From contig JACQOV010000051.1 in the NCBI GenBank assembly GCA_016202395.1, positions 1 to 57,414 on the forward strand: a stretch of 57,414 nt of DNA, in the 5' to 3' direction. Shown in pieces: positions 4,196 through 48,383 of the stretch. Position numbers and translations under genes: made by a program. Source of the DNA: Deltaproteobacteria bacterium (GTDB taxonomy: Bacteria; JACQOV01). Every line of letters begins with the position of its first letter. Position 1 is the stretch's first letter. The notes below the pieces were generated by a model. It searched no databases, had not been told where the DNA came from, and saw nothing but the letters and a program-made list of their open reading frames with translations.

Positions 4196-6295
4196 ATGAT
4201 TAGGTTATCCCACAAAATGGTTTATCCGATATTACCTCTTTTAATGATTTTGTTGACCGTTGCTTTGGGATGTGGAAAGGGGGACCTCTCAGGGAGTAGC
4301 AGTTCCTACGTTTCGGAGGAGGGGGGAGAGACGACCCTTCTTGCCCCACCGATGCCTACCGATCCAACTCCTAATACCACAAGTTCGGCGATTGGGATCA
4401 GCGCCCCTTATGAAGAAGATGGTCGAGTGATTCTTCGATCTCAGGAAGCCTTTAAGGTCGACGGGAAAGTTTACAATGGGGAATTTTCGATCTCAATCGA
4501 TAGTGTGGGCACATTATTGGAAACAGCCTCGGCAGAAGAAGGAACCTTTGAAGTGACCCTGAAATCGACCTCTTCGGAGTTACAACCGGGGACAGTTTTG
4601 TGTATTTCGATTGTGAACTTCTCAGGATGTATTGAAAAACTTACCGTTCCTGAAATAGGTTTGTTAAGCATCAGTCCCGTAGGGGCTGAGATTGGCGAAA
4701 AGGTAGTCTTCGAAGGGAACCGGTTCCATTTAGGCGGGGATCGGGTTTTCTTCAATGGTGTTTCAGCGACCGATGTTTCAGAGGTTCAATTTATAGATCA
4801 AGATGGCGTTACGAATTCGATCATCAGCGCCACAGTCCCTGAAGGGGCCACATCCGGCCCGGTGTGGATTGAGGTTTCTACAACAGGAGAAACCCTGACA
4901 AGTCACAAAATCCCATTCAGGGTGCTCGAGGTTTCGGAACTGTCGGCTCCTTTGGAGGTAGATCCAGGCTATGAGGCTTTTGGAAGCGCCATGACATTCT
5001 TGGATTTTGATGGGAGCGGTATAGACGATATTGTGATCGGTGATCCCAAATATGATGATGGAGACGTTGAAGACGTTGGGATCGTCGTGATCTATCGGGA
5101 TGGAAATCCCAACGATATTATTCGCATTCGTGGCGAGAGAGAGGATGAGAGATTTGGGGTCTCTCTGGCAAAAACAGAGATTCACGGAGAGGCGTTGGTC
5201 GTTAGCGCGCTGGGTCCCTCGAAGGGGACAGGAAGCCTTCATATCTTTTATGGTGAAACAGTGGGTTTAAAAACAGAGCTTCTTTCCGGCGATGCCGATG
5301 TGATTCTTGAAGATCTAAACCTTTTTACGGCTGTAGAGAAGAATTTCATGGGGGGATCTCCGAAAGTCTCTCCCATTTCTGAACTTGATATTTTTTCGGA
5401 GATGTCGGTCTTCCATGGCAATTCGTTAGGTTGGTCCATTGCGGTTGCGGGAAAGATCGATGGAGATGATCTCGAAGACCTGATCGTAGGTCGTCCCAAT
5501 TGGGATCGAGACCGGGGGGAGGTTTACATCCTTTTTGGGAAGGATCTCCAGTCTCAAAAAGTGATCAGTCATATCGATGACATTCCCCACATCACGATTC
5601 AGGGATCTGCAGAGGGGGATCTTTTTGGGGAAGCGGTCTCGGGGCTCGGAGATGTGAACGGAGATGGACAGGACGATTTCATGGTCGGGGCCCCCGCATT
5701 GGGGGTGAGTTATCTCTTTTTGGGAGGGAATGATCTATGGGTTGAAGGGAATGTGCTTTCCTCTAACGAGGCCAATGGGGTCATTGCTTCACCTAGGGTT
5801 GGAGACCGATTCGGATCGACGATTGTTCGGGCGGGGGATATAAACCAGGATGGGTTGAACGATATCCTTATCGGCGCCCCTGGCGATGGCGTGGTAAATC
5901 TCTTTTTTGGAAGCGACTCCCTTCTGGAGAGTCAGACAACCGCTTTGGATGCCGACGCCATCCTTAAGGATGTCTCTGAAGATTCCCTCTTTGGCGATTC
6001 GCTCGCTTTTGGCGATATCAACGGGGACGGCTTCCAGGATCTCTTTGTTGGAGGTGAAGAAAAGGTTCATGTCTTCTTGATCAATACAGGGCGCTTTTGT
6101 TCTTCTGTGGATTGCCAGTTCTTAGTTTCGAATCCAGATCTTATTTTACAGACTGAGAAAGAGCAGATCGGAAGCGGTTTTGGTGGCGCTATTGCCGCCG
6201 ATGGGGATGTCGATGGGGATGGGTTTGAGGACTTTCTCATTGGGGCGCCTGGAAGCAATAAAGTGTTTCTCTATAAGTCCCCTGAGGAGTTATGA
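4196..6295 (+). CDS. Lipoprotein with IPT/TIG-like domain and FG-GAP (integrin alpha-like) beta-propeller
   Basis: Lipobox VALGC; ISPVGAEIGEKVVFEG...VFFNG (IPT-like); repeated FGxxxA..GD(V/I)NGDGxxD(F/I/L)xxGAP motifs. Confidence 0.88.
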   Translation: MIRLSHKMVYPILPLLMILLTVALGCGKGDLSGSSSSYVSEEGGETTLLAPPMPTDPTPNTTSSAIGISAPYEEDGRVILRSQEAFKVDGKVYNGEFSISIDSVGTLLETASAEEGTFEVTLKSTSSELQPGTVLCISIVNFSGCIEKLTVPEIGLLSISPVGAEIGEKVVFEGNRFHLGGDRVFFNGVSATDVSEVQFIDQDGVTNSIISATVPEGATSGPVWIEVSTTGETLTSHKIPFRVLEVSELSAPLEVDPGYEAFGSAMTFLDFDGSGIDDIVIGDPKYDDGDVEDVGIVVIYRDGNPNDIIRIRGEREDERFGVSLAKTEIHGEALVVSALGPSKGTGSLHIFYGETVGLKTELLSGDADVILEDLNLFTAVEKNFMGGSPKVSPISELDIFSEMSVFHGNSLGWSIAVAGKIDGDDLEDLIVGRPNWDRDRGEVYILFGKDLQSQKVISHIDDIPHITIQGSAEGDLFGEAVSGLGDVNGDGQDDFMVGAPALGVSYLFLGGNDLWVEGNVLSSNEANGVIASPRVGDRFGSTIVRAGDINQDGLNDILIGAPGDGVVNLFFGSDSLLESQTTALDADAILKDVSEDSLFGDSLAFGDINGDGFQDLFVGGEEKVHVFLINTGRFCSSVDCQFLVSNPDLILQTEKEQIGSGFGGAIAADGDVDGDGFEDFLIGAPGSNKVFLYKSPEEL

Positions 6296-8610
6296 ACACG
6301 CTAGAAACTAAAAAAGAGACTCTGCTCCATTACCACACCATTGGAAGTTCGTACCTCCACCAGGGGGATTACTCGAGAGCCTCCAAGTATTTCCGTAAAG
6401 GTCTTCATCTCCTGAAGGAGGCCCATTCCACCGATCGAATGGATTTCATGGAGAGGATGGGGAATGTTTATCTCTTGAAAGGGGAATATCGAAAAACGGT
6501 GGACACCTGCAAAGCGGGGATGGATCATGTAGATCACTACTCCAACCAAAGGGAGATTGCGGCGCTCTGCCGAACTTTGGGGGCCGCGTGCAGTCGACTG
6601 AACGATTATGCTTCGGCCGAGAAGTATTTTTCGATTGCGCTAAAGATTTTTGGGGATTATGGGGATCGGAATGGAGAGGCCTTAACCCTTTTCAATCAGG
6701 CGATGCTCGATCAGAGTCGAGCCCGATATTCTGAGGCCTTGAAGACTTATAACCAATGTTTAAAGTTGTTCAAACGGAATAAAGATGAGGTGAACCTGAT
6801 CTCCACGATCATGAACTTGGGGACTCTCTATCATGAGATGAACGATTATGCGACCGCGTTGAAGCACTATCAAGCTTGTCTCCTTAGCGCTCGAAAGATC
6901 CAGAATCTTCCCCTCATTGCAAAGGTGTCCAACAATCTTGGGAACCTTTTTTTGTCGATGGGAAGCTATAGAGAGTCGGAAGAGCTTATTCTTTACTCTC
7001 TGCGATTGTGTCGGGATCTCAAGATTCCGTACCTCATTGGCTACAATCATCTTTTATTGGGAATACTTAAACTAAAGACGGGAGAGGGAGCGGAGTCTAT
7101 AGAAAACAGCTCCAAAGCCCTGCATAGTTTCCAGGAGGCCGACAGCCAACGAGAGGTTTGTCTTGCCGAGATTCATCTGGCCAACGCTTATTGCGAGAGT
7201 CGCAGTCGACGGTTGGCGGAGCAGCACTTGAGCGAGGCTTTTCGGTTGTCCAAAGAGATCGGTTCCAAAGAGCTGGCGATGCATGCTGTTGTCGTTAAGG
7301 CGAAACTGGAGCGGATCGGCGGGAATGGAAAGTGTGTCCTGGGGATGCTGGAGAAGGCAAAGGATTATTTTGAGGCATCTCAAAGATGGGAGCTTTTGTG
7401 GGAGATATTTTATGAAATCGGAAGGATCTACGAGGAGGCAGGGGACGTTGGCAAGGTTCAAGCCTCTTGGCGCCATTCGGCGAATTTCATCGAAAAGATT
7501 TTAAGCAAGATTCCGGAGGAGCGTCGAGGAGAATATCTTAAAGATCGAGATCGTCAGAGTGTGTATCAAAACCTTTATTCAGAAAAAGGGAGTCCGTATT
7601 CCCCCTTGGAAGCGCCCGATGGGTTTGACACGATGGTGGGGGGCAGCAAAGCGGTCTTGGAGATTCTAGACGCCATTGATCGTGTTGCTAACAGCTCCAT
7701 TCCCGTTTCGATTCAAGGAGAAACGGGCACTGGCAAAGAGTTGGTGGCTCGATTGGTCCATGGTCGCGGGAATCGGCGAGACAAGCCTTTTACGGTCATT
7801 GATTGCGCTTCACTCTCTGAGAACCTTGTGGAGAGCGAACTTTTTGGACATGAAAAAGGGGCCTTCACAGGGGCGTGCGAGCGCCGCATCGGGAAACTGG
7901 AATCGGTTCGTGGAGGGACTCTCTTTCTAGATGAGGTGGAGAATATTTCTCCTTACGTCCAAGGGAAATTGCTTCGCTTCTTGCAGGAAAAGGAGTTCAC
8001 CCGAGTCGGCGGGAACGAGATCGTTCGAGTGGATGCCAGAATCATCAGCGCATCCAAAAAAGATTTGGCGAAAGAGGTTGAAACGGGGATGTTCCGGGAG
8101 GATCTTTTTTATCGATTAAGGGTCTATCTCATTACACTCCCGCCGCTTCGAGAAAGGAGAGAGGACATCCCTTTGCTCATCGAACATTTCTTGGCTCAGG
8201 TCTCAAAAAATAATCAGCGAAAGATCACTTTGGAGCCCCAAGCCATGGATCTTTTATACCACTATGATTTTCCAGGAAATGTCCGACAATTAAAGAATGA
8301 AATTCTTCATGCCTGCATTTTGGCGGATTCCAAGAACGTTCTTGGCAGAGAGATGTTTTCCGAGAAGATTACGAGGGCTAAAGAGGGCGCCACGGAGATC
8401 CAAAATCGCAATGGCTCCTTTCTGCAGAAAATGGAGAACATGGAAAGAGATATTGTGATCGACGCCCTTATGATGAGAAGTGGAAACATTTCCAGAGCGG
8501 CTGAAGATTTAGGGCTAAGCCGATACGGTCTCTATAAAAAGATGAAACGTCTCAAAATTCAGAATTTCAAGAGCGATGTTCCGAAAAGCTTACAAGAGTG
8601 CCAACTCTAG
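6292..8610 (+). CDS. sigma54-dependent enhancer-binding protein with TPR sensor domain
   Basis: ~430 aa of TPR-like helices; GETGTGKE Walker A, ESELFGHEKGAFTGA, FLDEV, FREDLFYRL; C-terminal Fis HTH (NISRAAEDLGLSR..LYKKM). Confidence 0.93.
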   Translation: MNTLETKKETLLHYHTIGSSYLHQGDYSRASKYFRKGLHLLKEAHSTDRMDFMERMGNVYLLKGEYRKTVDTCKAGMDHVDHYSNQREIAALCRTLGAACSRLNDYASAEKYFSIALKIFGDYGDRNGEALTLFNQAMLDQSRARYSEALKTYNQCLKLFKRNKDEVNLISTIMNLGTLYHEMNDYATALKHYQACLLSARKIQNLPLIAKVSNNLGNLFLSMGSYRESEELILYSLRLCRDLKIPYLIGYNHLLLGILKLKTGEGAESIENSSKALHSFQEADSQREVCLAEIHLANAYCESRSRRLAEQHLSEAFRLSKEIGSKELAMHAVVVKAKLERIGGNGKCVLGMLEKAKDYFEASQRWELLWEIFYEIGRIYEEAGDVGKVQASWRHSANFIEKILSKIPEERRGEYLKDRDRQSVYQNLYSEKGSPYSPLEAPDGFDTMVGGSKAVLEILDAIDRVANSSIPVSIQGETGTGKELVARLVHGRGNRRDKPFTVIDCASLSENLVESELFGHEKGAFTGACERRIGKLESVRGGTLFLDEVENISPYVQGKLLRFLQEKEFTRVGGNEIVRVDARIISASKKDLAKEVETGMFREDLFYRLRVYLITLPPLRERREDIPLLIEHFLAQVSKNNQRKITLEPQAMDLLYHYDFPGNVRQLKNEILHACILADSKNVLGREMFSEKITRAKEGATEIQNRNGSFLQKMENMERDIVIDALMMRSGNISRAAEDLGLSRYGLYKKMKRLKIQNFKSDVPKSLQECQL

Positions 8611-13743: not shown

Positions 13744-13772
13744 GGGGTCAGACCTAACTATCTAACTATTTG
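13744..13772 (+). repeat. RAYT-associated repeat R1
   Basis: 29-bp copy preceded by GTAG whose TAG is the stop of the upstream gene. Confidence 0.95.
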
Positions 13773-14733
13773 GGGGATAAAATCTTTTCTTGTTTTGAAT
13801 GAGCTTCCTTTCGAGATGAGCCATTTCTTTTTGAAGATTAGGGTCCTGATCGAGGAGCTTTTGGAGTCGTTTCATTTGCATCGTTAAGATCGTGGGTTCC
13901 CTTTGGTAGCGTTTTCCTACCTCTTTAAATGTTCCTCCCTTTAATCTCTTCCAGAAGTAAGCAATCCATATTCTTGCTCGTGCTTCTTTTCTTGTGCGAT
14001 CCGGATGCTGTAGTACTTTTGGGTAGGTGCCCAGGACTCTGCAGACTTCATTCTCTATTTCATCCAAAGAAATTTCCCAGAAACAAGAAAAAGTTTCTTG
14101 TAATTTCTTCTCCACTTTCGAGTTAAATTCGCTACTTCCTTGAATTCGTTGGCTGCCAATCTTTTCGAAAGGGTCTTCATAATTGAGGGAAATCCCGTCG
14201 AGGATAAATTGTGCGAAGCGATCTCGAGCGATTTCTATTTTTGATGAAAATTGGGAAAGTACGAGGTGAGTTTCAATCCAACTTTCTTGTCTTTGTCCTA
14301 TATAAACGGAATAGGTGGTCCATGGGTAATCAGCTAAATTTTGTGTGAGATTAGCTCGTAGAGGATTCAGGTGAACGTACCGGACGAGCTCAAGGAGGTA
14401 TGATTCTTTATCGCAGAGAATCGCTTTGTATCGCCCTTGAAAAAGGTGTCCCACTCTTCCGTACTTTTTGTTGAAGTATTGTGTATAGGAAGAGAGGAAA
14501 GCTTGGAAAATTTTACTGAGTGGGGTTTCCTGAGCCTCGATTAAACAATGGAAGTGATTAGGCATCAAGGCATAGGCATAAAGCTGGAAGGGGTATTTTT
14601 TGTGGTAGTGCTGAAGACGAGAAATGAATTCGCTATGGTCCCTTTGATCAAAGAAAATAGGTTGCTTTTGGTTTCCTCTTGAAAAGAGGTGATAAAAGGC
14701 GCCGGAATAATGAATGCGAGGCTTTCTTGGCAT
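13762..14733 (-). CDS. REP-associated tyrosine transposase (RAYT/Y1_Tnp) with C-terminal HTH-like extension
   Basis: MPRKPR..YHLFSRGN, LYAYALMPNHFH (HUH), GHLFQGRY, RYVHLNP (catalytic Tyr); stop codon lies inside the left repeat. Confidence 0.93.
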   Translation of the reverse strand: MPRKPRIHYSGAFYHLFSRGNQKQPIFFDQRDHSEFISRLQHYHKKYPFQLYAYALMPNHFHCLIEAQETPLSKIFQAFLSSYTQYFNKKYGRVGHLFQGRYKAILCDKESYLLELVRYVHLNPLRANLTQNLADYPWTTYSVYIGQRQESWIETHLVLSQFSSKIEIARDRFAQFILDGISLNYEDPFEKIGSQRIQGSSEFNSKVEKKLQETFSCFWEISLDEIENEVCRVLGTYPKVLQHPDRTRKEARARIWIAYFWKRLKGGTFKEVGKRYQREPTILTMQMKRLQKLLDQDPNLQKEMAHLERKLIQNKKRFYPPNS

Positions 14734-16830: not shown

Positions 16831-17901
16831 GTGAAATGGATCTTTTATGCCGCGGGAATAGGGATATGGGGCTTGTCACTGGCTCACGCCTCTTTGACGC
16901 CGCTCCAAACCGAAACAGCTTTCTATCTTCTAGATCATTTGAGCAGCCTCCGTGTTGTGACCACTGAGGAAGGAAGCCCTCTCACTCATTATGTCTATTA
17001 TCCTTATGGCGAGACTCGGAACGAACAGCCAACCGCCAATGAGCAGTCGCCATTTCGATACACAGGGCAGCGATTCGATTCCGAGACCCATCTTTATGAT
17101 TACGGCGCTCGGTACTACGATCCTAAGATCGGCCGCTTCCTTTCTATCGATCCTGATCCGCAAGGTTTTCTCAGTCATTATTCTTACGTGAAAAACAACC
17201 CGCTGATTTATGTCGATCCGAACGGCCAATGGGAGGTGTGGTTTCACTACGCCCTCACGGTAGAAATAACAAAAAGTCTAGGGTATTCCGACCAAGATGT
17301 TGCGGAGATCGGTTACTTTGCCGCAAGGGTGGATAAGATGTGGACGGGGCCTTCAAAAAACTTCTCCTCTTTGGCTTTTATTGGTGTCCCTTCCCTCCAC
17401 TTTAAGAGCGCTTGGAGCAGCCTCTTTTTCCTGGACCGTTTGAAAATGTCTTGGTTGCCTCAGAATTATCGATTAGGGGCGTTGTTGCATCAAGCTCAAG
17501 ATTACGAAGCCCATGCCAATTTTTGGTTTCCGTCTCCTTTGGAGTCCCTTTTGCAACTCATTCATCATGTCGGTTTGGGAGAAAGGTTCTATCCCGATGA
17601 TCCAACCCAGAAACCGGATAAGACCTTGGCGGCGGCCGATGCGACAGTGGCTCAAATTTTGAAAGGTCCGCAATATAAAGGCCTGTCGGTGGAAGAAAAG
17701 ATCAAACTCCGCGACGAGATTGTGGAGGACGTGGTTCCCAAGATCTTGAATCATGCAGATGCCCGTCGATCGGCATTCGCTCAAATAGAGCCAGAGATTA
17801 TGGATCCGAATACCTCTAAGGAGGAGCAGGCAGAGTTGTACAAAAACTATCAGCAACAGCTAGGACAGATTGAAATGATCGAGGTCGGAAGTGAGGATTG
17901 A
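16831..17901 (+). CDS. Cartridge 1: signal peptide + Rhs-associated core + Zn-PLC/S1-P1/Het-C-like tip
   Basis: LSLAHA signal; [41 protein letters not shown]; tip starts QWEVWFH and has [10 protein letters not shown]. Confidence 0.85.
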
Positions 17902-17902
17902 G

Positions 17903-18880
17903 ATGTTGAGAGAATCTATTTTTTGGATGGGATGTCTATGTTTCTTCCTGTTAGTGCGCCATGGGGCCGCTTCCCCTTCTCCACAAACCGAGACAGCCTT
18001 TTATTTAACGGATCACCTTGGCAGCACGCGGGTGGTGACCAACCCACAAGGAAGCGCACTAGCCCGCCATTCTTATTATCCCTATGGGGAGGTGCGAAAT
18101 CCTCTCTCTGAATCCATGGAAACTCCTCATTTGTTTACAGGACAGGAATATGATTCGGCGGTAGAGCTCTATTATTACGGCGCTCGTTATTATGAACCCT
18201 CACTCGGAAGATTTCTAAGTCTAGACCCTCTTTTAAGGAAAGCCATACGAAGAGAGGAAGACAACCGTGGAAAGAGTTTTGTCGGCAGACCTATCGTATG
18301 GAATGGCTATGTTTACACTCGTAATAATCCCATTCGGTACCTGGATCCCACGGGTGAGGATGACCTCGAGTTTAAAGACAGCTATGACCTTAGTAGGCAG
18401 CTACATAACGGCAAACTTCGATTGGAACTGGGGGATGTGGTGTATCTTGCTCGTGAGGAGCAGGAATACACGGTGACTCGAGTTTTTGGTAAGAGTGACA
18501 AGGTTGAAGGGTATTTGTCCATTCGACCGAAAGATGAAGTGAAAGGGGAGTTATGGATTGCAACAGGCTCTGAAAAGGGGTTATGGGAGGAGTTGAGTGA
18601 TGCCTTAAGAGATCATCCAAAGACAACGGAGGAAATTATAGAAAATGCTTTTGAATTTGCGAAATTTGTAAAATCGCAAGAATTTGATGTGATTGCTGTG
18701 CTTCCCGTGGATGAGAAAGGAGATGTTATGATGGACTCACGACCTGAAAATGTCTATAGCCTCTTTTTTGATTCTATGGCTCTAGGAGAAGATGGTACCA
18801 TACCGCTTCCGTATCCTATCTCGCTGGACGGATTTTACGATGTTGTGAGGAAGCTATACGGCCCCCCTCCTGAAGATTAG
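17903..18880 (+). CDS. Cartridge 2: signal peptide + Rhs core + unknown acidic tip
   Basis: FYLTDHLGSTRVVT..YYYGARYYEP..NNPIRYLDPTG; ATG 17903 after GAGGA. Confidence 0.85.
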   Translation: MLRESIFWMGCLCFFLLVRHGAASPSPQTETAFYLTDHLGSTRVVTNPQGSALARHSYYPYGEVRNPLSESMETPHLFTGQEYDSAVELYYYGARYYEPSLGRFLSLDPLLRKAIRREEDNRGKSFVGRPIVWNGYVYTRNNPIRYLDPTGEDDLEFKDSYDLSRQLHNGKLRLELGDVVYLAREEQEYTVTRVFGKSDKVEGYLSIRPKDEVKGELWIATGSEKGLWEELSDALRDHPKTTEEIIENAFEFAKFVKSQEFDVIAVLPVDEKGDVMMDSRPENVYSLFFDSMALGEDGTIPLPYPISLDGFYDVVRKLYGPPPED

Positions 18881-18907
18881 GGGGTCAGACCTAACTATCT
18901 AACTATT
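18881..18907 (+). repeat. RAYT-associated repeat R3
   Basis: GGGGTCAGACCTAACTATCTAACTATT immediately after the TAG stop of cartridge 2 and 21 nt before cartridge 3. Confidence 0.95.
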
Positions 18908-18928
18908 GGCTAACTATGGTGGAGGAGA

Positions 18929-29966: not shown

Positions 29967-30046
29967 ATACAATAATGGCATCTCCAGAGTCACAGTTTAC
30001 CAGCGTGTTTAGAATACCGATGGTGGAGGGTGTAGGAGGTAGGGCG

Positions 30047-33000
30047 ATGGATAAAGGTAAGAGGGAATCTTGGTTCCGACAATTATTGGCCGTGTGGTTG
30101 ATATCGGCTTTACTTGTGTTTCCGGCGTCTTCCGGTTGGGCTGCTCCTTTGGCTAATGCAGATGATGCAAAGGCAAAAGCTGTTTCAGAGAATCTGGTTA
30201 CGAAGGAGGTTGCTTTTGGGGCGCGGTTAGCGACACAGCCGGGAGAAGCATCAGAGATTGCGGAAGAAGAGGAGGAATATAAGGAATTACCTTTACAGAA
30301 TATGACGGAGGAAACGCCACCGGGGCCCGAGAGCGCTCCTTTGAGTTCCATGCAGGTAAGTACGAATGTAGATTCCCATACGGGGTCAGCCAATGCCAGT
30401 GTTCCTATTAAAGTACCAGCTGGGCGAGGAAGGATCGAACCGAAGCTTTCATTGGTTTACAACAGTGGAGGAGCGGACACCCTCCTGGGGCCTGGTTGGA
30501 GTATGCCCATTGGGACGATTACGCGAAGATGGGATCGTATGGAGGGATTACAGTATCGCGAGGATGTTTCTTTTGTCACTGTCATTGGTGGAAAGAGTGA
30601 CACTTTGTATCCGGTGGATAACCGGACTACTTTCATATCTAAAGTTGAAGATCTTTCGAAGTATTACTTAGCTTCTGACAGTTTGTCATGGGAGGTCACA
30701 GACAAGAGCGGAACTCGCTACATTTTTGATCTACACGTAGCGAGGGATGGTGATGACGATTCTGCATCGTCTGTTAGCGATATTTATAAATGGTACTTAA
30801 CACGGATTGAGGATTTAAAAGGAAACTATCTCAGGATTGAGTACACCCGAGATCGTCCTTCTGATGATGAGTTTGCCGAAGAGTTTTATCCGGTGAGTAT
30901 TTATTACACTGGCCATTCAGATGATGAGAACTTTAGGAATCGGGTGGATTTTGTGTATGAGCGGAGGCCAGAACAGGTTCTGGTGGGGGATGGAGGGGAT
31001 TTTCGCTTGGTCAGCCATCACAGGCTTGTGGCGATTGAAGTTTATAGTGATCAGGGAAATGAACTCCTATGGAAATATGAGTTGGAATATCAAGCAGGGT
31101 ATTCCTGGATCGGAACACGATTAAAGAGCGTGAGGATGATTGGGGCCAACCCCTTGGATGAACTGCCACCGGTTACATTTACGTATTATGAGTTTCCGAT
31201 AGGCGAAGATGGAATGCCGAGATTCGTCGAGGAAGTGGGAGGAACTTGGCCAGGAGCTCCCACTACGGGTTATCTGCGATCTCATCGAGAGAGTGGACGA
31301 TGTGTTGTAAGTGATTTTGTGGACCTCAATTGCGACAAACTTACCGATTATGTGGAGGTGAGGGGGAGTGAGTGCCCTTATGATGGAAATGATATTAAAG
31401 GTTATGAGGTATTGAGTTGGGAAGGGCAATGGTGGAATGGTTGGTCGGAGGAGGAGATCGAGGAATGGGTTTGGCGGGAGCTGAGGGAAGATTATCAGCA
31501 ACTGGAATGGCGTTTTTATGAGAATAATGGAGAAGGCTTTGAGGCGTACAAGGTCTTTGAGTCACCTACCTCTACTAAACGTGAAAAGCTTTATGCCTGT
31601 GGTGATTGTGATAGTTATGTGGAAGTAGAAATTACTTATTACCTTTATACTGCTCTTTCTCTAGTGGATAACGATGGTGATGAACTATTCGATGTGATGG
31701 ATATCAATGGAGATAGTTGCCCGGAGTTGGTTGCGTCAGGAAAATACACGAATCGTCAAGGTTGGCTTGTTTATCACAATATCAATCGTAATGAGGATAC
31801 AGGCGGCGTTGGATTTGTTACGAACTCAGAATTTTGGGAAACGCCGGATGGATCGGTTCCTTACATATCCCGTACCCACCTCGATGAAGAAGCCAATCAA
31901 CTCACCCAAGGCTTCTTCCAATTCTATCCTTCTGATCCGCCAGAGTATCTCAATTCGGAGGCTAGCACGCCATATTGGAAGATTTATAAATTTAACGTGG
32001 GGGAGGAAACCTACGATCTTGAAAGCATCGAGGTGGAGCAGAAAAAAGTGGGACCGACGGGCATGTACTATCTTACGGCGCGGGGAGCAAAGAGTGTGAT
32101 AGGGGGTCTTTTTAATTTTCCAACGAGCAGTTCATTGAACTACGTAGTGGCTGATTACCCTGGAGAGGGAGATGGGAGTTGGTATTATTATGATCGGGAT
32201 AGTGAAGGGGATTTTTCTACATCGGCTGAGAGCTTTGAGGTTCCTTACACTGATGCGGCTGCGATATTTCAATCGAATGATTCGGGACAGACGCATGGAT
32301 TGCTTCCGATGGAGGGAAGGAACGATGACACACCGGACTACGTAACCACAACGGACGATCAAGGTAAAGCGACCACCACCTGGACGGTGTACATCAATAT
32401 GGGGGTAGGAAGTTGCTTTGGGAAGTATGATCCTGCTGGTGGGACAGAGCCTTTGTGTCGAGAGGGAGTAAGTTTTCAGGGACCTGGGGAATATTTGTCG
32501 GACTATAAGGGGGTGAATCTTGGGGCCGCCTTTGAAGATCTGGATCGGAGTGGGATTTCGGATTATGTAGTGGCAACTACCGATGGCTGGACGATCTATC
32601 GAGATCTGAAGGCTCCTTTAGATACGGCTGCAGCCGCAAGCATTGGCCCAGAGGCTCATGGGGTTTCTTCGGGGACTTTGTATTCAGTGAATAATGGGTT
32701 AGGTGGAGTCACCTCTTTCCAGTACACCCCTTCGAGCCAGTTTACGAATGCAAATAGTGACGGAAAAGATACTCTCTCTGTGGTTTTTCCCGTGGTGACG
32801 GAAGTGAAAATAGAGGATGGCTTTGGGAATAGTTATGTGCGCACCTTCGATTATGAAGGGGGATATTTTTATCAGGGGAATGAAGCGGTGAGTGTGGGGC
32901 CTGGGACTGTGACCTCTTGGGTAGATGAGTTTCGTGGATTCCAGAAGGTTAGGGAGACAGATCCCGAGGGTAAAGTGACGGAGACGAGGTTCTATCAAGG

Positions 33001-36000
33001 TAGAAAGGATGGAGCAACTTCCAATGAAAGGGATTATGCGTTGCAGGGGCAGGTGGTCAGTCAGACGGTTAAGGATTCAAGTGGGCGTTTAGTGAGTCAG
33101 ATGGATCATGAGTGGGAATTAGCGACATTCCAAGGGGGAAGGTATCCCAGGTTTAAGGGCAAGACGAGTTGGATCTATGATGAAAGTGGAGGGAGTCGGA
33201 AGCGGAAAGTGTCATTTGTCTATGACGCCTATGGGAATGTGGTGAAGATGCACGATCATGGAAATCCAGATTCAAACGATGGTGATGAGTTCAGTGAATG
33301 TGCGACTTACTACACACCTGATCTGGAATCAGGGGATCCATGGATATTAGATCGGAAGGCAAGTAGTTGGACACAGGAAGAAATAGTCTCCAACATTTCG
33401 AATGCTTGCCAAGGGAGTACAGGCCGACTGAATGAACGGGTTTACTTGTATGATTTGCAGGAACCGTGGGAAGGGGATCTACCAAATCTGAGCACATGGG
33501 ATGTGACAGAGTCGGGGAACTTGAGTGAGGAGTTTGTCCATTTAGTAGATAGTACGAGTGGAGTAGATCGTTGGATAGGGTATCGGTACAACGAGTATGA
33601 CGAGTATGGGAATTTGGTGGACATGTGGGACGCCCGTGAGAATCGGACGCACATCGTTTACGTTTATTTCGACACACTTGTGACAAGTGTGACAGAGGCT
33701 TATGAGACGGAGGAGGCTTATACGACTTACTATGAGTATAGTGAGCGCTTTAATGAGGGGACGGGCTTAGCGTCAGTGGAAGAAGATCCGAATGGGGCAA
33801 GGGTTGAGACCGATTACGATACCTTAGGTCGTGTGATTGAGACTCGTCGAGGAACCTATTCGACAACCTATTCCACCGAACGAATCGAATACAACAATTT
33901 AGGGGTCCTCCCTGGAACCCATTCCTCTTGTCAAAGTCGTCCAGAATCTCCCCCTGTGGAGAACGTGAATCGTTCGAAGTGGATAGCCATTCCTTCCGAT
34001 GAAGTGGAGCCTCAAGGCTCGAGGTGGTGGTTTCCATTTACGAAAGGGATTCAGTCCGTAATGCCAAAAGAGCGTGAGGAGTGTCAGAATGTTCGGAAGG
34101 AGGTAGTCGATAATGTCGGAGGGGGGACGACATGGGAGGTTTCCTATTTTGATGGGATGGGGAGAGGTTACAAGGCGGTGAAACCTTCGGATCAGGGGAT
34201 GGTGAAGTCGGTGGTGGAGTTTGATCTCTTGGGGCGTGTGTCGCAACGTTCTGTACCTGTTTTGTTGAGTCAGGCACTGGATCTTCAAGACAGCCGCCTA
34301 TGGATGAAAATGGAGTATGACGATTTCTCGCGAGTGAAGGTATTGGAGCGACCGTCTCCGGATTATTCTGTTGCAGAGCGATTTGAGGTAAGCCATAAGG
34401 GGTACGAAATAAAGATTAAGGATGCAGGTTACAATGCTTCGGGAAGCCCTGGAATGTTGACGAAAGTGAAGGTGAATTCGCAGGGGCGGCCCGTAGAAGT
34501 TCGAGAGTGTTTCGAGGAAAGCTGTTCAGGAGTAGCACTTACTCAATACAAGTATCATGCGGTGGGAGGGCTTAAAGAGATTAAAGTCACGCCTTACGAA
34601 AGTTCTTACGGAACCATCACTACTCAATTTACATACGATAGCCTAGGGCGCAGAGTTGTAGGCAAAGATCCTAATCAGGGGACGTGGAGCTATAAATATG
34701 ACGATTCGGGTAATATCGTGAGGCGTGTTGACGCCAAGGGGAATATCTGGCGATTTGAATACGATGCCAGAAATCGTCTAGATCGTAGATTTTTGGACAT
34801 GAACGACGATAGTGCGCCGGATGGGGCGGTTGTAGATTATCAATACGACACAGGTTCAAGTGGTTGTTATTCTCAAAGTCGGCTAACCGCTATTGTAACG
34901 ACCGGCTCCGACAACGATCATTCGATCTCTTACTGTTACGATCGACTGGGGCGTGTCGCCTTAAAAACAAGGACGTTAAGCGATGGTTCAGCGTATGGCT
35001 TTGCTTATGCCTACAATGGCCTGGATCAGGTTACCCAGATCACCTATCCGAGTTGGTATACGGTCCAATATGAATACGATGATACGACTCTTCAGCTCAA
35101 GCGTGTCAAAAGCGCGTTGGACAACCAACTCCTCGTGGAGGACATAAAATACAACGAGCGGGGAGGTGTTGCCCAAATCGATTACGGGAATGGAACCACC
35201 ACAATGATGGACTATGAAGAAGGCTCGCAGCGAACCGAAGAGATCCGTGTAGATCGGACGAGTGACAGTGCAAAACTTCTGGATCTGGTTTATCAATATT
35301 ATGCCAGTGGAGATGTGAAGCAGACAAAAGAAACGGCGTCGTCATGGACGGAAAACTTTTACTATGATGGTTACCATCGTTTAATACAAGCCACGCGCAC
35401 GGATCAAGGAAATCCCACTCATGACTATCTCTACGATTATGATTCCATCGGGAATATGATCCAGAACACCGCGGTCACCACAGGGGAATACCATTATGAG
35501 GATCCAAATCATCCTCATGCGGTGACCTCAATCGATAATTCATATGACTTTGATTACGACGACAACGGTAACCTTGTATCGAAATTTCGTGCAGATCGTT
35601 CGGTTGGGACTAACTACGGTTGGGATAGGGAAGAAGCTCGGCTCGATTATGTTTGGTCCATTGATTATGAAAATAAACTCAGTGACATTACCTATTTTTA
35701 CTATCATGCCGATGGTCAAAGAGTAAAAGTAGCGAGTGGTGATGCTATATCAGGACAACTCTCAGAGGTTTTGACGCTCGAAGGGCTTTATGAAGAGCGG
35801 GAAGGAGAAATCATCCATCATGTGTATATGGGGAGTCAGAAGGTAGCAGAGGTTACTATCCCGCAAGGAACCGATCTTCGTGCCACCTCCGCAGGCATTA
35901 TTTCAAACCACAGCGTCTCTTGGTTCTTCTCCCATTGGGATTCCTACGGGTGGGTTTTCTTCCTCTTCGCTTTTCTCATCTATTTCCTTGTTCTGTGGAT

Positions 36001-43700: not shown

Positions 43701-44783
43701 ATGGATTTCATTAAATCAAAAGTACTTCAAATTTTAATTGGAGCGATGCTTTTTGCGTTTTCTTCTCAAGCTCAGGAAGTTTTTTATCTGACCGATCATC
43801 TCGGCAGCGCGCGGGTGGTGACCAACGAATCGGGAGCCGAGCAGGCCCGCTATGCTTATTATCCGTTTGGGCAGATTCGGGGTTCCGATCTGAGCCAGTA
43901 TGCTACTTTTAATACCTACACGAATCAGAAATTCGACACCGAAAGCAACCTCTACTACTACGGCGCTCGGTATTATGAACCTGGCTTCGGCAAGTTCTTA
44001 AGTCCCGATCCCCTCCGAGAGATTTTGAATCTTTATACCTATGCTCGAAACAATCCGCTTTTGTTTATCGATCCTGATGGAAAACAGACTCAGATAGAGG
44101 ACCTCAAAGGGGATGAGGATCTGGAGACGGTGCAACAAGCTTATCGGAATACAGTCTACCAATGGGTGGATTACACGCCGATTCTAGGGCCTCTTCGGGA
44201 TGTTCATCGTGTGTTTTTTGATTGGGATCCTGTTGCGGATACACCGCATCATGAATCGGCTCAGGGAGAGAATGAAAGATTGGCTTGGGCCATTGTTCGA
44301 TTGGGGGGGGATGTGATGGCCTTGAGTTTGTTGATGCCGGAGGTAGGTGCGGCAGCTCAAGAGGGGAGAGCTGCTATCAGCCTGGAGGCTCGTGGAAAAC
44401 AATATAGGATCGCTCTCGGATTAAAGAAACCTCTTCGGTATCACGTAAAATCGCTTGAGGAAGGGCATGGATACGGCGATATCAAAACCTATTGGGGAGT
44501 CGTTTTAGATTCTAGGATCTCTCCGGACTCCGGGATGGAACTTTCCTTGATGCCTGGCAAGAAGACATTTTTCCCCAACATCAAGACCATCTTGGAGAAT
44601 CCCAATGTGGAGGCCCACTTTACGATGAACGATTTTAAAGTGCCTGAAGATATGGGGGCAGCGCTGGCAGGGGAATCGAGTCGGACAGATTTTGAATACG
44701 CCAAGATCATGAGGATCATCGAGAAAGATCCTACCCAAGCGGATCGGTTCCACTTTTATTACAATTTCGGGAATAAGAAATGA
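43701..44783 (+). CDS. Cartridge 11: signal peptide + Rhs core + pre-toxin-TG-like segment + putative nuclease-type tip
   Basis: SSQA-QEVFYLTDHLGS..NNPLLFIDPDG; VDYTPILGPLRD; IALGL..HFTMNDF..TDFEY..FHFY pattern. Confidence 0.85.
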   Translation: MDFIKSKVLQILIGAMLFAFSSQAQEVFYLTDHLGSARVVTNESGAEQARYAYYPFGQIRGSDLSQYATFNTYTNQKFDTESNLYYYGARYYEPGFGKFLSPDPLREILNLYTYARNNPLLFIDPDGKQTQIEDLKGDEDLETVQQAYRNTVYQWVDYTPILGPLRDVHRVFFDWDPVADTPHHESAQGENERLAWAIVRLGGDVMALSLLMPEVGAAAQEGRAAISLEARGKQYRIALGLKKPLRYHVKSLEEGHGYGDIKTYWGVVLDSRISPDSGMELSLMPGKKTFFPNIKTILENPNVEAHFTMNDFKVPEDMGAALAGESSRTDFEYAKIMRIIEKDPTQADRFHFYYNFGNKK

Positions 44784-46045
44784 TCTCTATATCCTTGAAG
44801 AAATTCATTGCGATCCCTTTGATAGCGATTTTCTCGGTGACGAGCTTTTCGTCCCCGGGGTTCCAGATTCCGTCGGTTCACGCGGCAGCCTGGGCTCCGG
44901 ATTCTCCCTCTAAGCCCTCTGTCAGTACCCTTCGATATTACAGTTGGGATCATTTAGGGAGCACGCGGGTGGTCACTGATGGCTTGGGTTCAGAGCAGGC
45001 CCGGTATTCTTATTATCCTTATGGTGAAATGCGGGGGAATTGGGATCTTGTACAGCTCCCTTCTTACAGTACCTACACGAGTCAGAAATTCGACACCGAA
45101 AGCAACCTCTACTACTACGGTGCGAGATACTATGATCCGAAGCTAGCTAGGTTCGTCAGCGCCGACCCCATTGTTACGCTGGAGCCTTATGCCTATAGTC
45201 GAAACAATCCTCTTTATTACACCGATCCCGATGGAAATTTTGCTCAGGCTGCAGTAGCGCCTCTTCTCCCTTTCGGCCCTGTGGGATGGGGGCTCGCCGC
45301 GGGGATCCTTGTGGGGGTTACGGTATACGGACTTTGGGCCACCGGGAATCTTCCCGGTTTGGAGGGGATCCGACCGGTTCCTTCCCCCTCACTCAACTAT
45401 CCCGGTTCGACCCCTGTCACTCTCCCTTCGCAGCCGGGGTATCAATCACCAGCTGTTAATACTAAGAATGCGCCGTTCCCTGTTACCGCCTCCCCTTCAT
45501 TGAAAGAGGTTTTTCCGGATGGAGCCGGGCTCCTTCCTCCTCCAGTTTTCCTGAGTCAGGATAAAACCTATGGTGAAGATCATCCCATCGTTGTAGGGAT
45601 AGGACAACAGGCACCACGGGCATACCTCATGCTGCAGCGGGGGGGTAATATAACGGGGGTTACGGCGGTGGATCCGGCGCTTGAACCCATGGGATTTAAC
45701 CCGAGCGTTGAGGAGTTAAGCATCACGGCGGGGGAGTTGGCAGAACTTGGATATCAAGGCATGCGGGTGTTTGTGGATAGACCCGGATTGTGGCAAGGGA
45801 ACACTGTGACTAGCGTTGCACAAATGATAGCTATGCAGGAGATCATGGAGGCAATGACATTAGTCGCTCCGGGTGGAACTCTTATTGCTTCTTACGATCA
45901 CGATGATATCTCTCCCCCTGCTATAGAGATTTTGGCAAAGAGCGGTTGGGGGCTTCTTGCTGCCGATGAGATGGTCCAGGTGATGGCGGACAGTGGTTAC
46001 TTCCCCACAGGGAGAGAGGTGGTTGGCTATCGAAAACCTCAGTAG
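44780..46045 (+). CDS. Cartridge 12: signal peptide + Rhs core + Gly-rich TM + Pro-rich linker + SAM-methyltransferase-like tip
   Basis: YSWDHLGS..NNPLYYTDPDG; IVVGIG, VTAVD and LVAPGGTL motifs. Confidence 0.85.
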   Translation: MISISLKKFIAIPLIAIFSVTSFSSPGFQIPSVHAAAWAPDSPSKPSVSTLRYYSWDHLGSTRVVTDGLGSEQARYSYYPYGEMRGNWDLVQLPSYSTYTSQKFDTESNLYYYGARYYDPKLARFVSADPIVTLEPYAYSRNNPLYYTDPDGNFAQAAVAPLLPFGPVGWGLAAGILVGVTVYGLWATGNLPGLEGIRPVPSPSLNYPGSTPVTLPSQPGYQSPAVNTKNAPFPVTASPSLKEVFPDGAGLLPPPVFLSQDKTYGEDHPIVVGIGQQAPRAYLMLQRGGNITGVTAVDPALEPMGFNPSVEELSITAGELAELGYQGMRVFVDRPGLWQGNTVTSVAQMIAMQEIMEAMTLVAPGGTLIASYDHDDISPPAIEILAKSGWGLLAADEMVQVMADSGYFPTGREVVGYRKPQ

Positions 46046-46046
46046 G

Positions 46047-46073
46047 GGGGTCAGACCTAACTATCTAACTATT
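46047..46073 (+). repeat. RAYT-associated repeat R7
   Basis: 27-bp exact copy one base after the GTAG containing the stop of cartridge 12. Confidence 0.95.
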
Positions 46074-46086
46074 GGAAGGTGGCACA

Positions 46087-47181
46087 ATGACGAATCCAAT
46101 CAAATCAAAAGCGTTTCAGATCCTAATTGGAGTGGCGCTTTTAGGGTCTTTTTCTCAGGCTCAGGAAGTTTTTTATCTCACAGATCATCTCGGCAGCACG
46201 CGGGTGGTGACGAACGAATTTGGGGCGGAACAGGCTCGCTATGCGTACTATCCGTTTGGTCAGATTCGGGGTTCGGATCTGGGGCAACTCGCTTCCTATA
46301 ACACCTATACCAGCCAAAAGTTCGACGCCGAAACGAGTCTCTTCTACTACGGCGCTCGGTATTATGATCCTGGATTGGGAAGGTTTGTGAGTGTCGATCC
46401 TGTTGTAAAATCTTCTATTCCTCAAGATCTGAACCCCTATGCCTATACTTGGAATAATCCGTTGAGAGTGATTGATCCCAGCGGGGGACAGGAAAAATAT
46501 TTCCAGATCCTTCAAGAGTATTTGCGATGGGTGTCAGGGAGAGTAGATAAACTGGATAATAAGATTGATAAGCTCATAAATGATGGAATAGATCTCCAAG
46601 AGCAATATGGTGAATTTGTGTTGCCTTCCGAAGAGAGTATGCGTAAGTGGTTGAAGCTTAACGTTGATTTTGGCTGGAAAACACAAGCTCAGGTAGATGA
46701 GATCCTAAACGACCCTGATAAAATGCAATCGCTTCTAACACGATCTGGAGAATTTGTGATCGATAAGAATAAGAATCCGATCATGTATGAAGCAAATGAG
46801 AAATTGCAGCAAAGGGTGCTCAAACTTATTGAACAAAAATTGCCCATGGATGACCTATTGGAAAGCGCTCATAGTGGTGGGTTGGATGAAGTGTATCAAG
46901 CAGCTTTGAAGGATAAGCAATTTGTAAAATATTTGAAGGGAATAGGGATGTTGTCTATCGCTTTATCTGTTGTGTCTCTTGCAGAAGAGGTGAGCGCTTC
47001 TGAGGATCCTTCTCAGGCCGCTGAGATCATTGATGAACACATTGAAAACTTTGTGGGTAACGGTCTATTGGGTCCCCCTTGGGAAATAATAGCAATAGGG
47101 GCGGGTCTACGCGAGTTACCTGAGCTTGAGGACCCTTACAGCTCGGAGGATTGGGGCCCTTATTTGGATCCTTTTAACTAG
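46087..47181 (+). CDS. Cartridge 13: signal peptide + Rhs core + helical tip + shared C-terminal tail
   Basis: FSQA-QEVFYLTDHLGS..WNNPLRVIDPSG; tail ASEDPSQAAEIIDEH..DPYSSEDWGPYLD. Confidence 0.85.
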   Translation: MTNPIKSKAFQILIGVALLGSFSQAQEVFYLTDHLGSTRVVTNEFGAEQARYAYYPFGQIRGSDLGQLASYNTYTSQKFDAETSLFYYGARYYDPGLGRFVSVDPVVKSSIPQDLNPYAYTWNNPLRVIDPSGGQEKYFQILQEYLRWVSGRVDKLDNKIDKLINDGIDLQEQYGEFVLPSEESMRKWLKLNVDFGWKTQAQVDEILNDPDKMQSLLTRSGEFVIDKNKNPIMYEANEKLQQRVLKLIEQKLPMDDLLESAHSGGLDEVYQAALKDKQFVKYLKGIGMLSIALSVVSLAEEVSASEDPSQAAEIIDEHIENFVGNGLLGPPWEIIAIGAGLRELPELEDPYSSEDWGPYLDPFN

Positions 47182-47200
47182 CCATCGTCAATTGAGTAGA

Positions 47201-47218
47201 GGGTCAGACCTAACTATT
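47201..47218 (+). repeat. RAYT-associated repeat R8 (one CTAACTAT unit missing)
   Basis: GTAGA-GGGTCAGACCTAACTATT directly upstream of cartridge 14. Confidence 0.88.
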
Positions 47219-47234
47219 GGAAGATGATGCGGTG

Positions 47235-48383
47235 ATGAGTTCCATCAAATCAAAAGTAGTTCAAATTTTCATTGGAGCGATGCTGTTTGCGTTTTCTTCT
47301 CAGGCTCAGGAAGTTTTTTATCTCACAGATCATCTTGGCAGCACGCGGGTGGTGACGAACGAGTTCGGAGCCGAGCAGGCCCGCTATGCCTACTATCCGT
47401 TTGGTTTTGCTCGCGGTGAATCGGGAGTTGGGATTCTCACTCATAGGTATACAGGAGGCCCATTGGATCGAGAGGCCTCCCTCTATTATCTTCAGGCTCG
47501 CTATTATGATCCAGCGCTAGGGCTGTTTGTTTCCGTGGATCCCATTCTTGAAACAGGTCAGCCCTATGCGTACGCTCGAAATAACCCAGTTCGGGTCGTT
47601 GATACAACCGGCCTTTCAGGTGAAGATAAAATCGATGACTGGGACTTATTGCGATTGTATTATTACAAAGGATCTTTAGGGGGGGAGGCCGGCATATTCG
47701 AGAAGAGAGGACCTATTGTTGCAGGGGGAGAACATTCGATGGCCGTTCCTAAAACCCTTTCTGGAAACAGTTGGGCCCATCGTCATAACGAAAGAGGGGC
47801 TATTCCTTCAAAGAAGGATATTGAGGTAACCACCCTGGCAGCGGAGGCAGCAGAAGAGGAGTTCTATCATACCGTGCTGGATCGATGGAAAAATGTGATC
47901 GACTTTAGCCTGAGCCCCGATGGAGAAATGACACTCTATCGAAACGACGGTGGAGCGGTTCATTTAGGAAGGGTCAGTGATATTATCGATGGCGCGGTCT
48001 ATCAAGGAGGGTTTGTGGAGGATATGGCTGACTGGACTGAGATCCGAACTTCTCGGGGAACGTTCCGTTTAGAATTGGACAAAAAATTGGGATTTTCATT
48101 AACTCACTTTGCTTTGAATGGTTCCCAACTAACGACTTACGCTATTGGGAGGGAACTTTCCGTATGGGGGGCGGTGAAGGCACGAATCCAAAGTGGAGGT
48201 AGATCGAGAGTGAAGGGGACCGCATTGACGGTGGGGATCTCTCTAGGGCTTAATCTTCTTTTCAAGGATGAAGCGGAGGGATTCGGGGATGTCGTAGGGC
48301 GAACGGCAATTGATATGATCGATCCCATGGTCCCCATTCGTGGTGAACTGGCTTGTGGGGTCGGTGAGGAGTGTCAGCCTTAA
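47235..48383 (+). CDS. Cartridge 14: signal peptide + Rhs core + JAB/JAMM-motif tip
   Basis: SSQA-QEVFYLTDHLGS..NNPVRVVDTTG; HRHNERGAIPSKKD = HxH-x7-S-x2-D with upstream GGEAG. Confidence 0.85.
   Translation: MSSIKSKVVQIFIGAMLFAFSSQAQEVFYLTDHLGSTRVVTNEFGAEQARYAYYPFGFARGESGVGILTHRYTGGPLDREASLYYLQARYYDPALGLFVSVDPILETGQPYAYARNNPVRVVDTTGLSGEDKIDDWDLLRLYYYKGSLGGEAGIFEKRGPIVAGGEHSMAVPKTLSGNSWAHRHNERGAIPSKKDIEVTTLAAEAAEEEFYHTVLDRWKNVIDFSLSPDGEMTLYRNDGGAVHLGRVSDIIDGAVYQGGFVEDMADWTEIRTSRGTFRLELDKKLGFSLTHFALNGSQLTTYAIGRELSVWGAVKARIQSGGRSRVKGTALTVGISLGLNLLFKDEAEGFGDVVGRTAIDMIDPMVPIRGELACGVGEECQP

Follow-up and report, generated by a model that had tools for sequence, protein, structure and literature searches.

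A membrane hairpin with a probable internal signal peptide at the shell/core junction of an Rhs cocoon protein from a deltaproteobacterium

The window analysed here, 57,414 nucleotides (nt) in length, is the whole of contig JACQOV010000051.1 (C28 in our numbering) from the 1.9-Mb genome, 89% complete, of a Deltaproteobacteria bacterium. It contains a gene for a giant Rhs protein, Rhs1, in which the beta-strand shell and the Rhs-associated core are separated by a hydrophobic helical hairpin, and it is this hairpin that is considered below. Rhs1 is followed by a shell-only partner, Rhs2, and is flanked on both sides by short genes, here called cartridges, each of which encodes a signal peptide, an Rhs core and a variable tip (Table 1). 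The organism is a diderm, with a BamA match of 655 bits and three secretins, and its genome encodes signal peptidase I (TIGR02227, 173 bits). A genome search gave relatives only at the level of the domain, and the best named matches to its ArgH, at 56-60% identity, are spread over several phyla.

The open reading frame (ORF) of Rhs1 is intact, and the start chosen by the gene caller, M25 (nt 30047), opens a Sec-type signal peptide predicted from the sequence. Its ending is retained as SWA↓AP in the Rhs1 orthologue P0004 (the arrow marks the predicted cut here and below), and N-terminal signal peptides are found in Rhs1, its paralogues and full-length homologues. The SpvB (PF03534, 38.4 bits) and TcdB_toxin_midN (PF12256, 33.6 bits) families both match above their cut-offs, the RHS/YD repeats are recognised by Pfam (PF05593, RHS_repeat) and by TIGR01643, and the Rhs-associated core TIGR03696 matches amino acids (aa) 2094-2189 with 69.6 bits against a cut-off of 32.5 bits; since all four are present, Rhs1 is identified as a fused TcB/TcC-like cocoon. 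The core carries the catalytic Asp pair, D2144 (nt 36404-36406, in ..SPDP..) and D2185 (nt 36527-36529, in DPSGL), which occupy invariant columns of the 35-sequence alignment A2 (model numbering D892 and D933) and align with ..SSDP..DPDGL of TccC3; with both Asp residues and the DPxGL motif in place, it is a predicted autoprotease. An AlphaFold2 model of aa 1253-2452 (mean predicted local distance difference test, pLDDT, 71; predicted template modelling score, pTM, 0.68) shows a beta-strand shell whose top fold matches in the PDB are TcdB2-TccC3 fusions (E 3e-34, query template modelling score, TMq, 0.52-0.54), followed by type VI secretion system (T6SS) Rhs effectors and teneurins. Rhs1 thus belongs to the Rhs/BC-cocoon (TcB-TcC-like) family, every defining feature of which that was examined is present. 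Assignment to the prePAAR/transmembrane-domain type of T6SS Rhs effector was considered and rejected, as the PAAR family is absent from the Pfam matches of Rhs1, the protein opens with a Sec signal peptide and its helices are far from that end, at aa 1991-2045. Databases name proteins with a hairpin of the Rhs1 type only as 'RHS repeat-associated protein'.

Table 1. Features of Rhs1 and of its neighbouring Rhs genes, with positions in the window
Feature	Position (nt)	Strand	Description
Rhs1 ORF	29975..37333	+	2452 aa; fused TcB/TcC-like Rhs cocoon protein
Rhs1 N-terminal signal peptide	30047..30142	+	MDKGKRESWFRQLLAVWLISALLVFPASSGWA↓A; aa 25-56; Sec-type, GWA↓A; basis: sequence
Last shell strand	35816..35854	+	HHVYMGSQKVAEV; aa 1948-1960; AlphaFold2 strands reach aa 1962
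Transmembrane helix 1 (TM1)	35945..36001	+	YGWVFFLFAFLIYFLVLWM; aa 1991-2009; read as stop-transfer membrane anchor
Arg-rich loop	36002..36058	+	RRRSWEPMWAFRVSSPLRR; aa 2010-2028; predicted cytoplasmic; holds internal ATG 36023
Transmembrane helix 2 (TM2)	36059..36109	+	GVASVLVVMLSLMTVAA; aa 2029-2045; signal-peptide-like, putative re-export segment, then R-P
Ser-rich linker	36110..36178	+	RPVQQDLKTQSSSTRSSSAFEYQ; aa 2046-2068; low pLDDT in the AlphaFold2 model
First core stretch	36179-36205	+	FFHSDRLGS; aa 2069-2077
Rhs-associated core	36179..36541	+	aa 2069-2189; C-terminal end is the DPSGL autocleavage motif
C-terminal tip of Rhs1	36542..37330	+	aa 2190-2452; no Pfam family
Rhs2	37414..42414	+	1666 aa; shell-only partner, no core; starts 80 nt after Rhs1
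TM1 of Rhs2	42124-42177	+	followed by RWGFRRW
TM2 of Rhs2	42226-42291	+	full-length; followed by a 40-aa tail
Ten upstream cartridge genes	16831..27101	+	signal peptide (AxA), Rhs core, variable tip
Five downstream cartridge genes	42483..48383	+	signal peptide (AxA), Rhs core, variable tip

The insert between the last shell strand and the core (FFHSDRLGS, aa 2069) is 106 aa long. An original prediction made from the letters of the window had described the strand, TM1 (quoted there as GWVFFLFAFLIYFLVLWM, aa 1992-2009), loop, TM2, linker, FFHSDRLGS and an internal Met at MWAFRV (nt 36023), and all of these were found in their places; both helices, moreover, are genuine hydrophobic segments. Their 19-residue Kyte-Doolittle means are 2.16 for TM1 and 1.97 for TM2, whereas elsewhere in Rhs1 a value of 1.6 is exceeded only by the signal peptide at the N-terminus and by two helices of the C-terminal tip. 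On the Hessa scale the 19-mer sums are -2.3 for TM1 and +3.6 for TM2, and only 0.4% of 19-mers in the genome's ORFs of at least 250 aa match the hydrophobicity of TM1. The loop between them contains six Arg and one Glu, for a net charge of +4 to +5, and the end of TM2, at nt 36109, offers V-A-A↓R-P as a candidate site for signal peptidase I. Two low-confidence helices span aa 1988-2012 and 2025-2043 in the AlphaFold2 model.

Such a hydrophobic segment is rare at this position. The junction consensus in the 35-sequence alignment is ..A, some nine residues and then Y.H.D.LGS, and in ordinary relatives the junction measures 4-11 aa (by BLAST with a piece of the last shell strand, usable for only about 15 matches). 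The original prediction that the strand of an ordinary Rhs protein leads to YYH.DHLGS within a few residues is therefore mostly borne out, but a few relatives carry soluble inserts of 28-61 aa. Comparison with homologues that lack the insert, which the prediction had proposed, agrees with the hairpin being unusual: when the 130 aa upstream of the core were scanned in 115 Rhs matches with an alignable core, a hydrophobic segment was present in five (Rhs1 itself, P0003, P0004, P0026 and P0036), and the median maximum Kyte-Doolittle value was 0.53. A search of 1.84 billion representatives with the junction gave only Rhs1 itself, P0003 and P0004 at E<1e-30. These two, 50% (P0003) and 40% (P0004) identical to Rhs1 over 385 aligned columns, are independent metagenome proteins that carry the whole insert and share the loop motif RRR..EP.W...P.L.RR with Rhs1, which indicates that the Rhs1 fusion is real and under selection and is no assembly artefact. 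At a greater distance, no fewer than 18 diverged Rhs proteins show the same layout of a full transmembrane helix, a positive loop, a short signal-peptide-like helix, AxA and the core, further examples being among the best 150 matches of the representative-library search. The hairpin is unaligned in every solved BC, Rhs or teneurin chain, the sequence matches in the PDB all beginning at the core, and the searchable Rhs literature yielded nothing relevant on an internal signal peptide or transmembrane hairpin. In the literature and structures searched, no Rhs protein has so far been described that has a hairpin and internal signal peptide between shell and core.

Considering whether TM2 behaves as a signal peptide, the 18 hairpins can be compared with other hydrophobic segments of the same genome, on an additive Hessa-type scale. 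The median 19-mer score of TM1 (1.10) resembles that of the genome's polytopic transmembrane helices (1.37, p=0.51, n=18), while the median of TM2 (3.81) resembles that of the 57 cartridge signal peptides of this genome (3.95, p=0.34, n=18) and differs from the polytopic helices (p=2e-5); within the 18 pairs, the higher score is that of TM2 in 16 (p=3e-4), although the sequences are related, so that these P-values overstate the case. A strict [AV]xA not followed by Pro ends TM2 in 12 of 18 (14 by eye) and TM1 in 4 of 18, against a background of 17.1% among 1066 internal hydrophobic segments of the genome (binomial P=4e-6 for TM2). The TM2 endings include VWA↓A (P0129), AFA↓T (P0150), VHA↓Q (P0184), VNA↓A (P0242), VEA↓Q (P0267), AYA↓A (P0162), AMA↓G (P0220), ALA↓Q (P0224), ARA↓D (P0207), LFA↓L (P0178) and DWA↓T (P0144). 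Loop charge is net positive in all 18 (+1 to +7), with flanks near neutral. The two other giant Rhs proteins of the genome, paralogues of Rhs1 on contigs C95 and C29, have textbook TM2 c-regions, ..VIPSSVYA↓R and ..SMPYSVQA↓A respectively.

Stand-alone relatives from other organisms provide a second line of evidence. P0257 starts with a TM2-like N-terminal signal, ..TTVEVKA↓APTYSPVFYYYH, which compares with ..STREVNA↓ATYSPVFY in the fused P0242, and the N-terminal segments of P0257 and P0205 are homologous to TM2 of the fused P0242, P0184 and P0267, among which both nest in a core tree (FastTree, about 120 aa, support values not inspected). Because the stand-alone starts are homologous to fused TM2 segments and are nested among them, fused TM2 and N-terminal signal peptide have evidently replaced one another in evolution. 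In gene layout, P0205 (L007:1571-3238) and P0257 (L005:862-2334) are stand-alone core-plus-tip genes that have kept TM2 at the N-terminus and so resemble orphan cassettes beginning at the internal signal peptide; P0205 possibly retains TM1 also, and an ORF of 126-156 aa follows each. Taken with the cartridge-like scores and the 12 of 18 [AV]xA endings, this bears out at the family level the original prediction that TM2 looks like an internal signal peptide, and cleavage by signal peptidase I behind TM2 is, judged from sequence, well supported as a family trait.

Rhs1 itself has several of the same attributes: a positively charged n-region (..RVSSPLRR directly before the h-region), a short h-region with a hydrophobic core of 12-14 residues, and a site, V(-3)-A-A(-1)↓R(+1)-P(+2), in which positions -3 and -1 are small and +1 is not Pro. 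A number of points nevertheless weigh against reading TM2 as a cleaved re-export signal. The c-region ..SLMTVAA has no Pro or Gly helix breaker at about -4 to -6, and the uncharged stretch of TM2, at 17 residues, makes cleavage a borderline case. No clean site is present in the two closest orthologues, P0004 having VSS↓PP with Pro at +1 and P0003 only TTS↓I, so that cleavage is not obligatory in the Rhs1 clade. The scale behind the score comparisons was applied additively and the 18 hairpins are kin, as said above. Two hydrophobic helices of the C-terminal tip might likewise be arrested in the membrane of the producer, and the topology would then be less simple. Finally, N-terminal signal peptides occur in 77 of 111 Rhs matches that have no hairpin, so Sec export alone needs none. 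On balance, cleavage of Rhs1 at V-A-A↓R-P is plausible, with the chances about even.

From these features we infer a topology, a possible cleavage and a route of assembly. It is probable that Rhs1 is a Sec-exported cocoon in which the junction of shell and plug holds a stop-transfer anchor and, behind it, an internal signal peptide. The proposed topology, with the shell outside, the loop inside and the core outside, was already suggested in the original prediction and has a good likelihood; it fits the N-terminal Sec signal peptide, the positive loop in 18 of 18 and the small-x-small end of TM2. The N-terminal signal peptide would start export, and the shell of about 1900 aa would emerge in the periplasm until TM1 halted transfer and anchored it in the inner membrane. 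The Arg-rich loop would remain cytoplasmic, and TM2, in length and hydrophobicity closer to a signal peptide than to a transmembrane helix, would re-initiate export, so that core and C-terminal tip would also reach the periplasm, where the core could plug the shell. Were V-A-A↓R-P cut, the products would be an anchored shell and a free core plus tip, the latter corresponding to what the 57 stand-alone genes yield in mature form, and the aspartyl protease of the core would then free the tip at DPSGL↓F.

The hairpin could instead be an uncleaved anchor, that is, a stable helical pair that only tethers the assembled cocoon, with shell and core remaining one chain and the AxA-like end having no function in Rhs1. 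The lack of a good signal peptidase site in P0003 and P0004 and of a helix breaker in the Rhs1 c-region would suit such an anchor, as would the hairpin of Rhs2, which has no core behind it and whose TM2 is full-length. Across the family, however, TM2 is short and signal-peptide-like with an [AV]xA end far above background, and stand-alone homologues use the corresponding segment as an N-terminal signal, so that we regard a purely tethering role as rather unlikely. A much smaller probability attaches to the helices being a device for the target membrane, which would not insert in the producer but leave with the toxin and aid its entry through the victim's membrane, a role proposed for the N-terminal transmembrane domains of prePAAR effectors of the T6SS. 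T6SS Rhs effectors do use transmembrane helices for delivery (bioRxiv 10.1101/2020.10.28.356139), and many hairpin-type Rhs proteins have hydrophobic, Gly/Ala-rich tips. Against this, Rhs1 has a Sec signal peptide and no PAAR domain in Pfam, the Sec translocon would catch a segment of the hydrophobicity of TM1, and neither a positive-inside loop in 18 of 18 nor a peptidase site on TM2 would be expected of a pair shielded in the producer; we consider this very improbable.

It is also extremely improbable that the 3' 1.3 kb is translated independently from ATG 36023 (MWAFRV..), TM2 then being an ordinary N-terminal signal peptide. A GGGAG does lie 3 nt upstream of this ATG (M2017; window 36012-36025) and the product, at 436 aa, would fall inside the cartridge size range, but a 3-nt spacing is short for a Shine-Dalgarno sequence, the orthologue at the syntenic metagenome locus L001 lacks a GGAG and reads GTT (Val) in place of the ATG, and in three independent sequences the frame runs on from the shell without a break. 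As a main mechanism the internal start was rejected on these grounds, the Shine-Dalgarno-like GGGAG being too near the ATG and neither feature being conserved in the orthologue. A sorting signal of the PEP-CTERM kind, to which TM1 with its Arg cluster bears some likeness, was likewise tried and rejected: the Rhs1 insert has no sorting-domain match, and a search of the genome gave no exosortase signature.

The reading of the hairpin as a stop-transfer anchor plus an internal signal can be set beside the gene content of the genome, in which the Rhs core model has 61 matches. By phmmer, 60 ORFs carry a core, 57 of them of 292-445 aa and the remaining three giants. The signal peptides of the cartridges have their AxA end 2-10 residues ahead of the first core strand, as in ..FGMAHA↓EVQYFHSDHLGS. 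The 57 short ORFs make up roughly 3% of the genome, and the core matches are spread over contigs C2, C5, C22, C28, C30, C43, C59, C62, C95, C99, C104 and others. Each of the three giants has the hairpin before its core and is followed by a shell-only gene, in the window (C28) and on C95 and C29; the two paralogous pairs lie at C95:5182-20305 and C29:1742-16224. The shell-only genes of C95 and C29 stop after the last shell strand, with a G-C-S motif, one transmembrane helix and RRRRR(S/YQS), while Rhs2 ends with a hairpin and a short tail whose only relative in a search was the L001 orthologue. Since the partners end after one helix and an Arg cluster, or after a hairpin, TM1 can serve as an anchor alone. 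The shell-only tails of C95 and C29 score 13.1 and 17.1 bits with Loki-CTERM, against a cut-off of 19.9.

The L001 locus preserves the arrangement, with a sigma-54 activator, an Rhs1 orthologue with the hairpin and an Rhs2 orthologue with a terminal hairpin, the two orthologues at 40-61% identity, and, at the contig end, the start of a cartridge. A regulator with tetratricopeptide repeats (TPR), a sigma-54 activator (AAA+) domain and HTH_8 lies upstream of the Rhs genes in both the window (6292-8610) and L001 (588-2801), and the link between regulator and Rhs genes is conserved in that sense. Between genes for exported proteins and the first cartridge cluster of the window is an ORF of 323 aa on the reverse strand (13762-14733). 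PF03538 (TcA/VRP1), the family of the translocator in ABC-type Tc toxin complexes, is unmatched in this 89%-complete genome, and equally so in 14 of 14 control genomes.

The core tree shows fused forms interspersed with stand-alone ones, and in it the Rhs1 core groups with P0003 and P0004, away from the cartridge radiation of its own genome. For this reason the idea that Rhs1 is the likely ancestor of the split layout, put forward in the original prediction, gains no support. The accompanying description of its 3' end as formatted like a cartridge stands as to size (436 aa from M2017, against 292-445 aa), but not as to the tip, which is conserved rather than polymorphic.

A further and more tentative proposal, which we hold to be possible but doubtful, is that the hairpin represents the cis form of a trans-assembling Rhs system, in which anchored empty shells would take up, in the periplasm, any one of the approximately 57 Sec-exported cartridges, signal peptidase making the same two pieces from Rhs1. 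The empty shells would be Rhs2 and its two paralogues, anchored in the inner membrane. If trans-loading were to occur, the Rhs cocoon would be a reusable, combinatorially loaded container, as opposed to a one-gene, one-toxin device.

The tip of Rhs1 opens with the two strongly hydrophobic helices referred to above (Kyte-Doolittle 2.3 and 2.2). It can be aligned among Rhs1, P0003, P0004 and, loosely, the two paralogous giants, and is not polymorphic; the polymorphic-toxin layout of a hypervariable tip with an immunity gene is not seen in Rhs1, which has this conserved tip and no immunity-sized ORF before Rhs2. Several other hairpin-type Rhs proteins also have Gly/Ala-rich hydrophobic tips without a Pfam family, and the composition of such tips suggests that they may be membrane-active payloads. 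In P0242 the same hairpin is combined with a GH-E nuclease tip and followed by an ORF of 126 aa, which may be an immunity gene, and the hairpin thus occurs in otherwise ordinary polymorphic toxins. The P0242 locus (L002:7517-14633, from a metagenome, in a cluster with a member from Verrucomicrobiae) consists of a TcB-like gene (827 aa), the TcC-like P0242 and the 126-aa ORF, in that order.

The Rhs and Tc cocoons described so far enclose a toxin that is attached to them. With a stop-transfer anchor and a probably cleavable internal signal at the junction, shell and plug-plus-toxin may reach the periplasm as separable units, and the container may remain attached to the membrane of the producer. 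A cassette beginning at the internal signal would be export-competent by itself, which would explain the presence of 57 autonomous core-plus-toxin genes beside only six shell genes in a 1.9-Mb genome. The hairpin gives a testable handle on cocoon loading, and the succession of a full transmembrane helix, an Arg-rich loop, a short h-region, AxA and the core provides a signature for annotation.

Among known systems, the BC cocoons of Tc toxins (TcdB2-TccC3, YenB/YenC2) share with Rhs1 the order of SpvB, TcdB mid-N, RHS-repeat shell and core as well as the catalytic Asp pair and the autocleavage motif DPxGL, and TcdB2-TccC3 is the best structural match; they differ in that the Rhs1 shell is predicted to be membrane-anchored and its core to be exported by an internal signal of its own. 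The cartridges recall orphan Rhs-CT (C-terminal) cassettes, in that core-plus-tip modules are arrayed beside a full-length gene. Classical Rhs-CT orphans are not known to have translation and export signals of their own, whereas the 57 modules here have a start codon and an AxA signal peptide. Zhang et al. 2012 (PMC3482391) described, as the 'TcdB/TcaC' trafficking class, polymorphic Rhs toxins that are Sec-exported and have a signal peptide and SpvB; these share with Rhs1 the signal peptide, SpvB, the RHS shell and a C-terminal tip; a transmembrane hairpin or internal signal peptide before the core is unmentioned in the text of that survey, and the Rhs1 tip, unlike theirs, is conserved and hydrophobic and lacks a downstream immunity-sized ORF.

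The T6SS Rhs effectors with prePAAR and N-terminal transmembrane domains are likewise Rhs proteins with transmembrane helices. Their helices are N-terminal, by the PAAR domain, Eag chaperones are needed and there is no Sec signal; Rhs1, by contrast, has its helices between shell and core, has a signal peptide and has no PAAR. Teneurins, which were among the fold matches of the model, also show a YD-repeat shell outside the cell on a membrane anchor, but they are eukaryotic, with a single N-terminal type II transmembrane helix and no internal signal peptide at the shell/core junction. No internal-signal-peptide processing of Rhs proteins is reported in the searchable literature. Flavivirus-type polyproteins and the cytochrome b/c1 precursor FbcH of Bradyrhizobium have an internal signal behind a stop-transfer helix, and signal peptidase cuts them on the far side of the membrane. 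These proteins are unrelated to Rhs1 and are alike only in combining stop-transfer and internal signal, yet such polyproteins cut at internal signals would, together with teneurins for the anchoring, be the nearest functional analogies for Rhs1.

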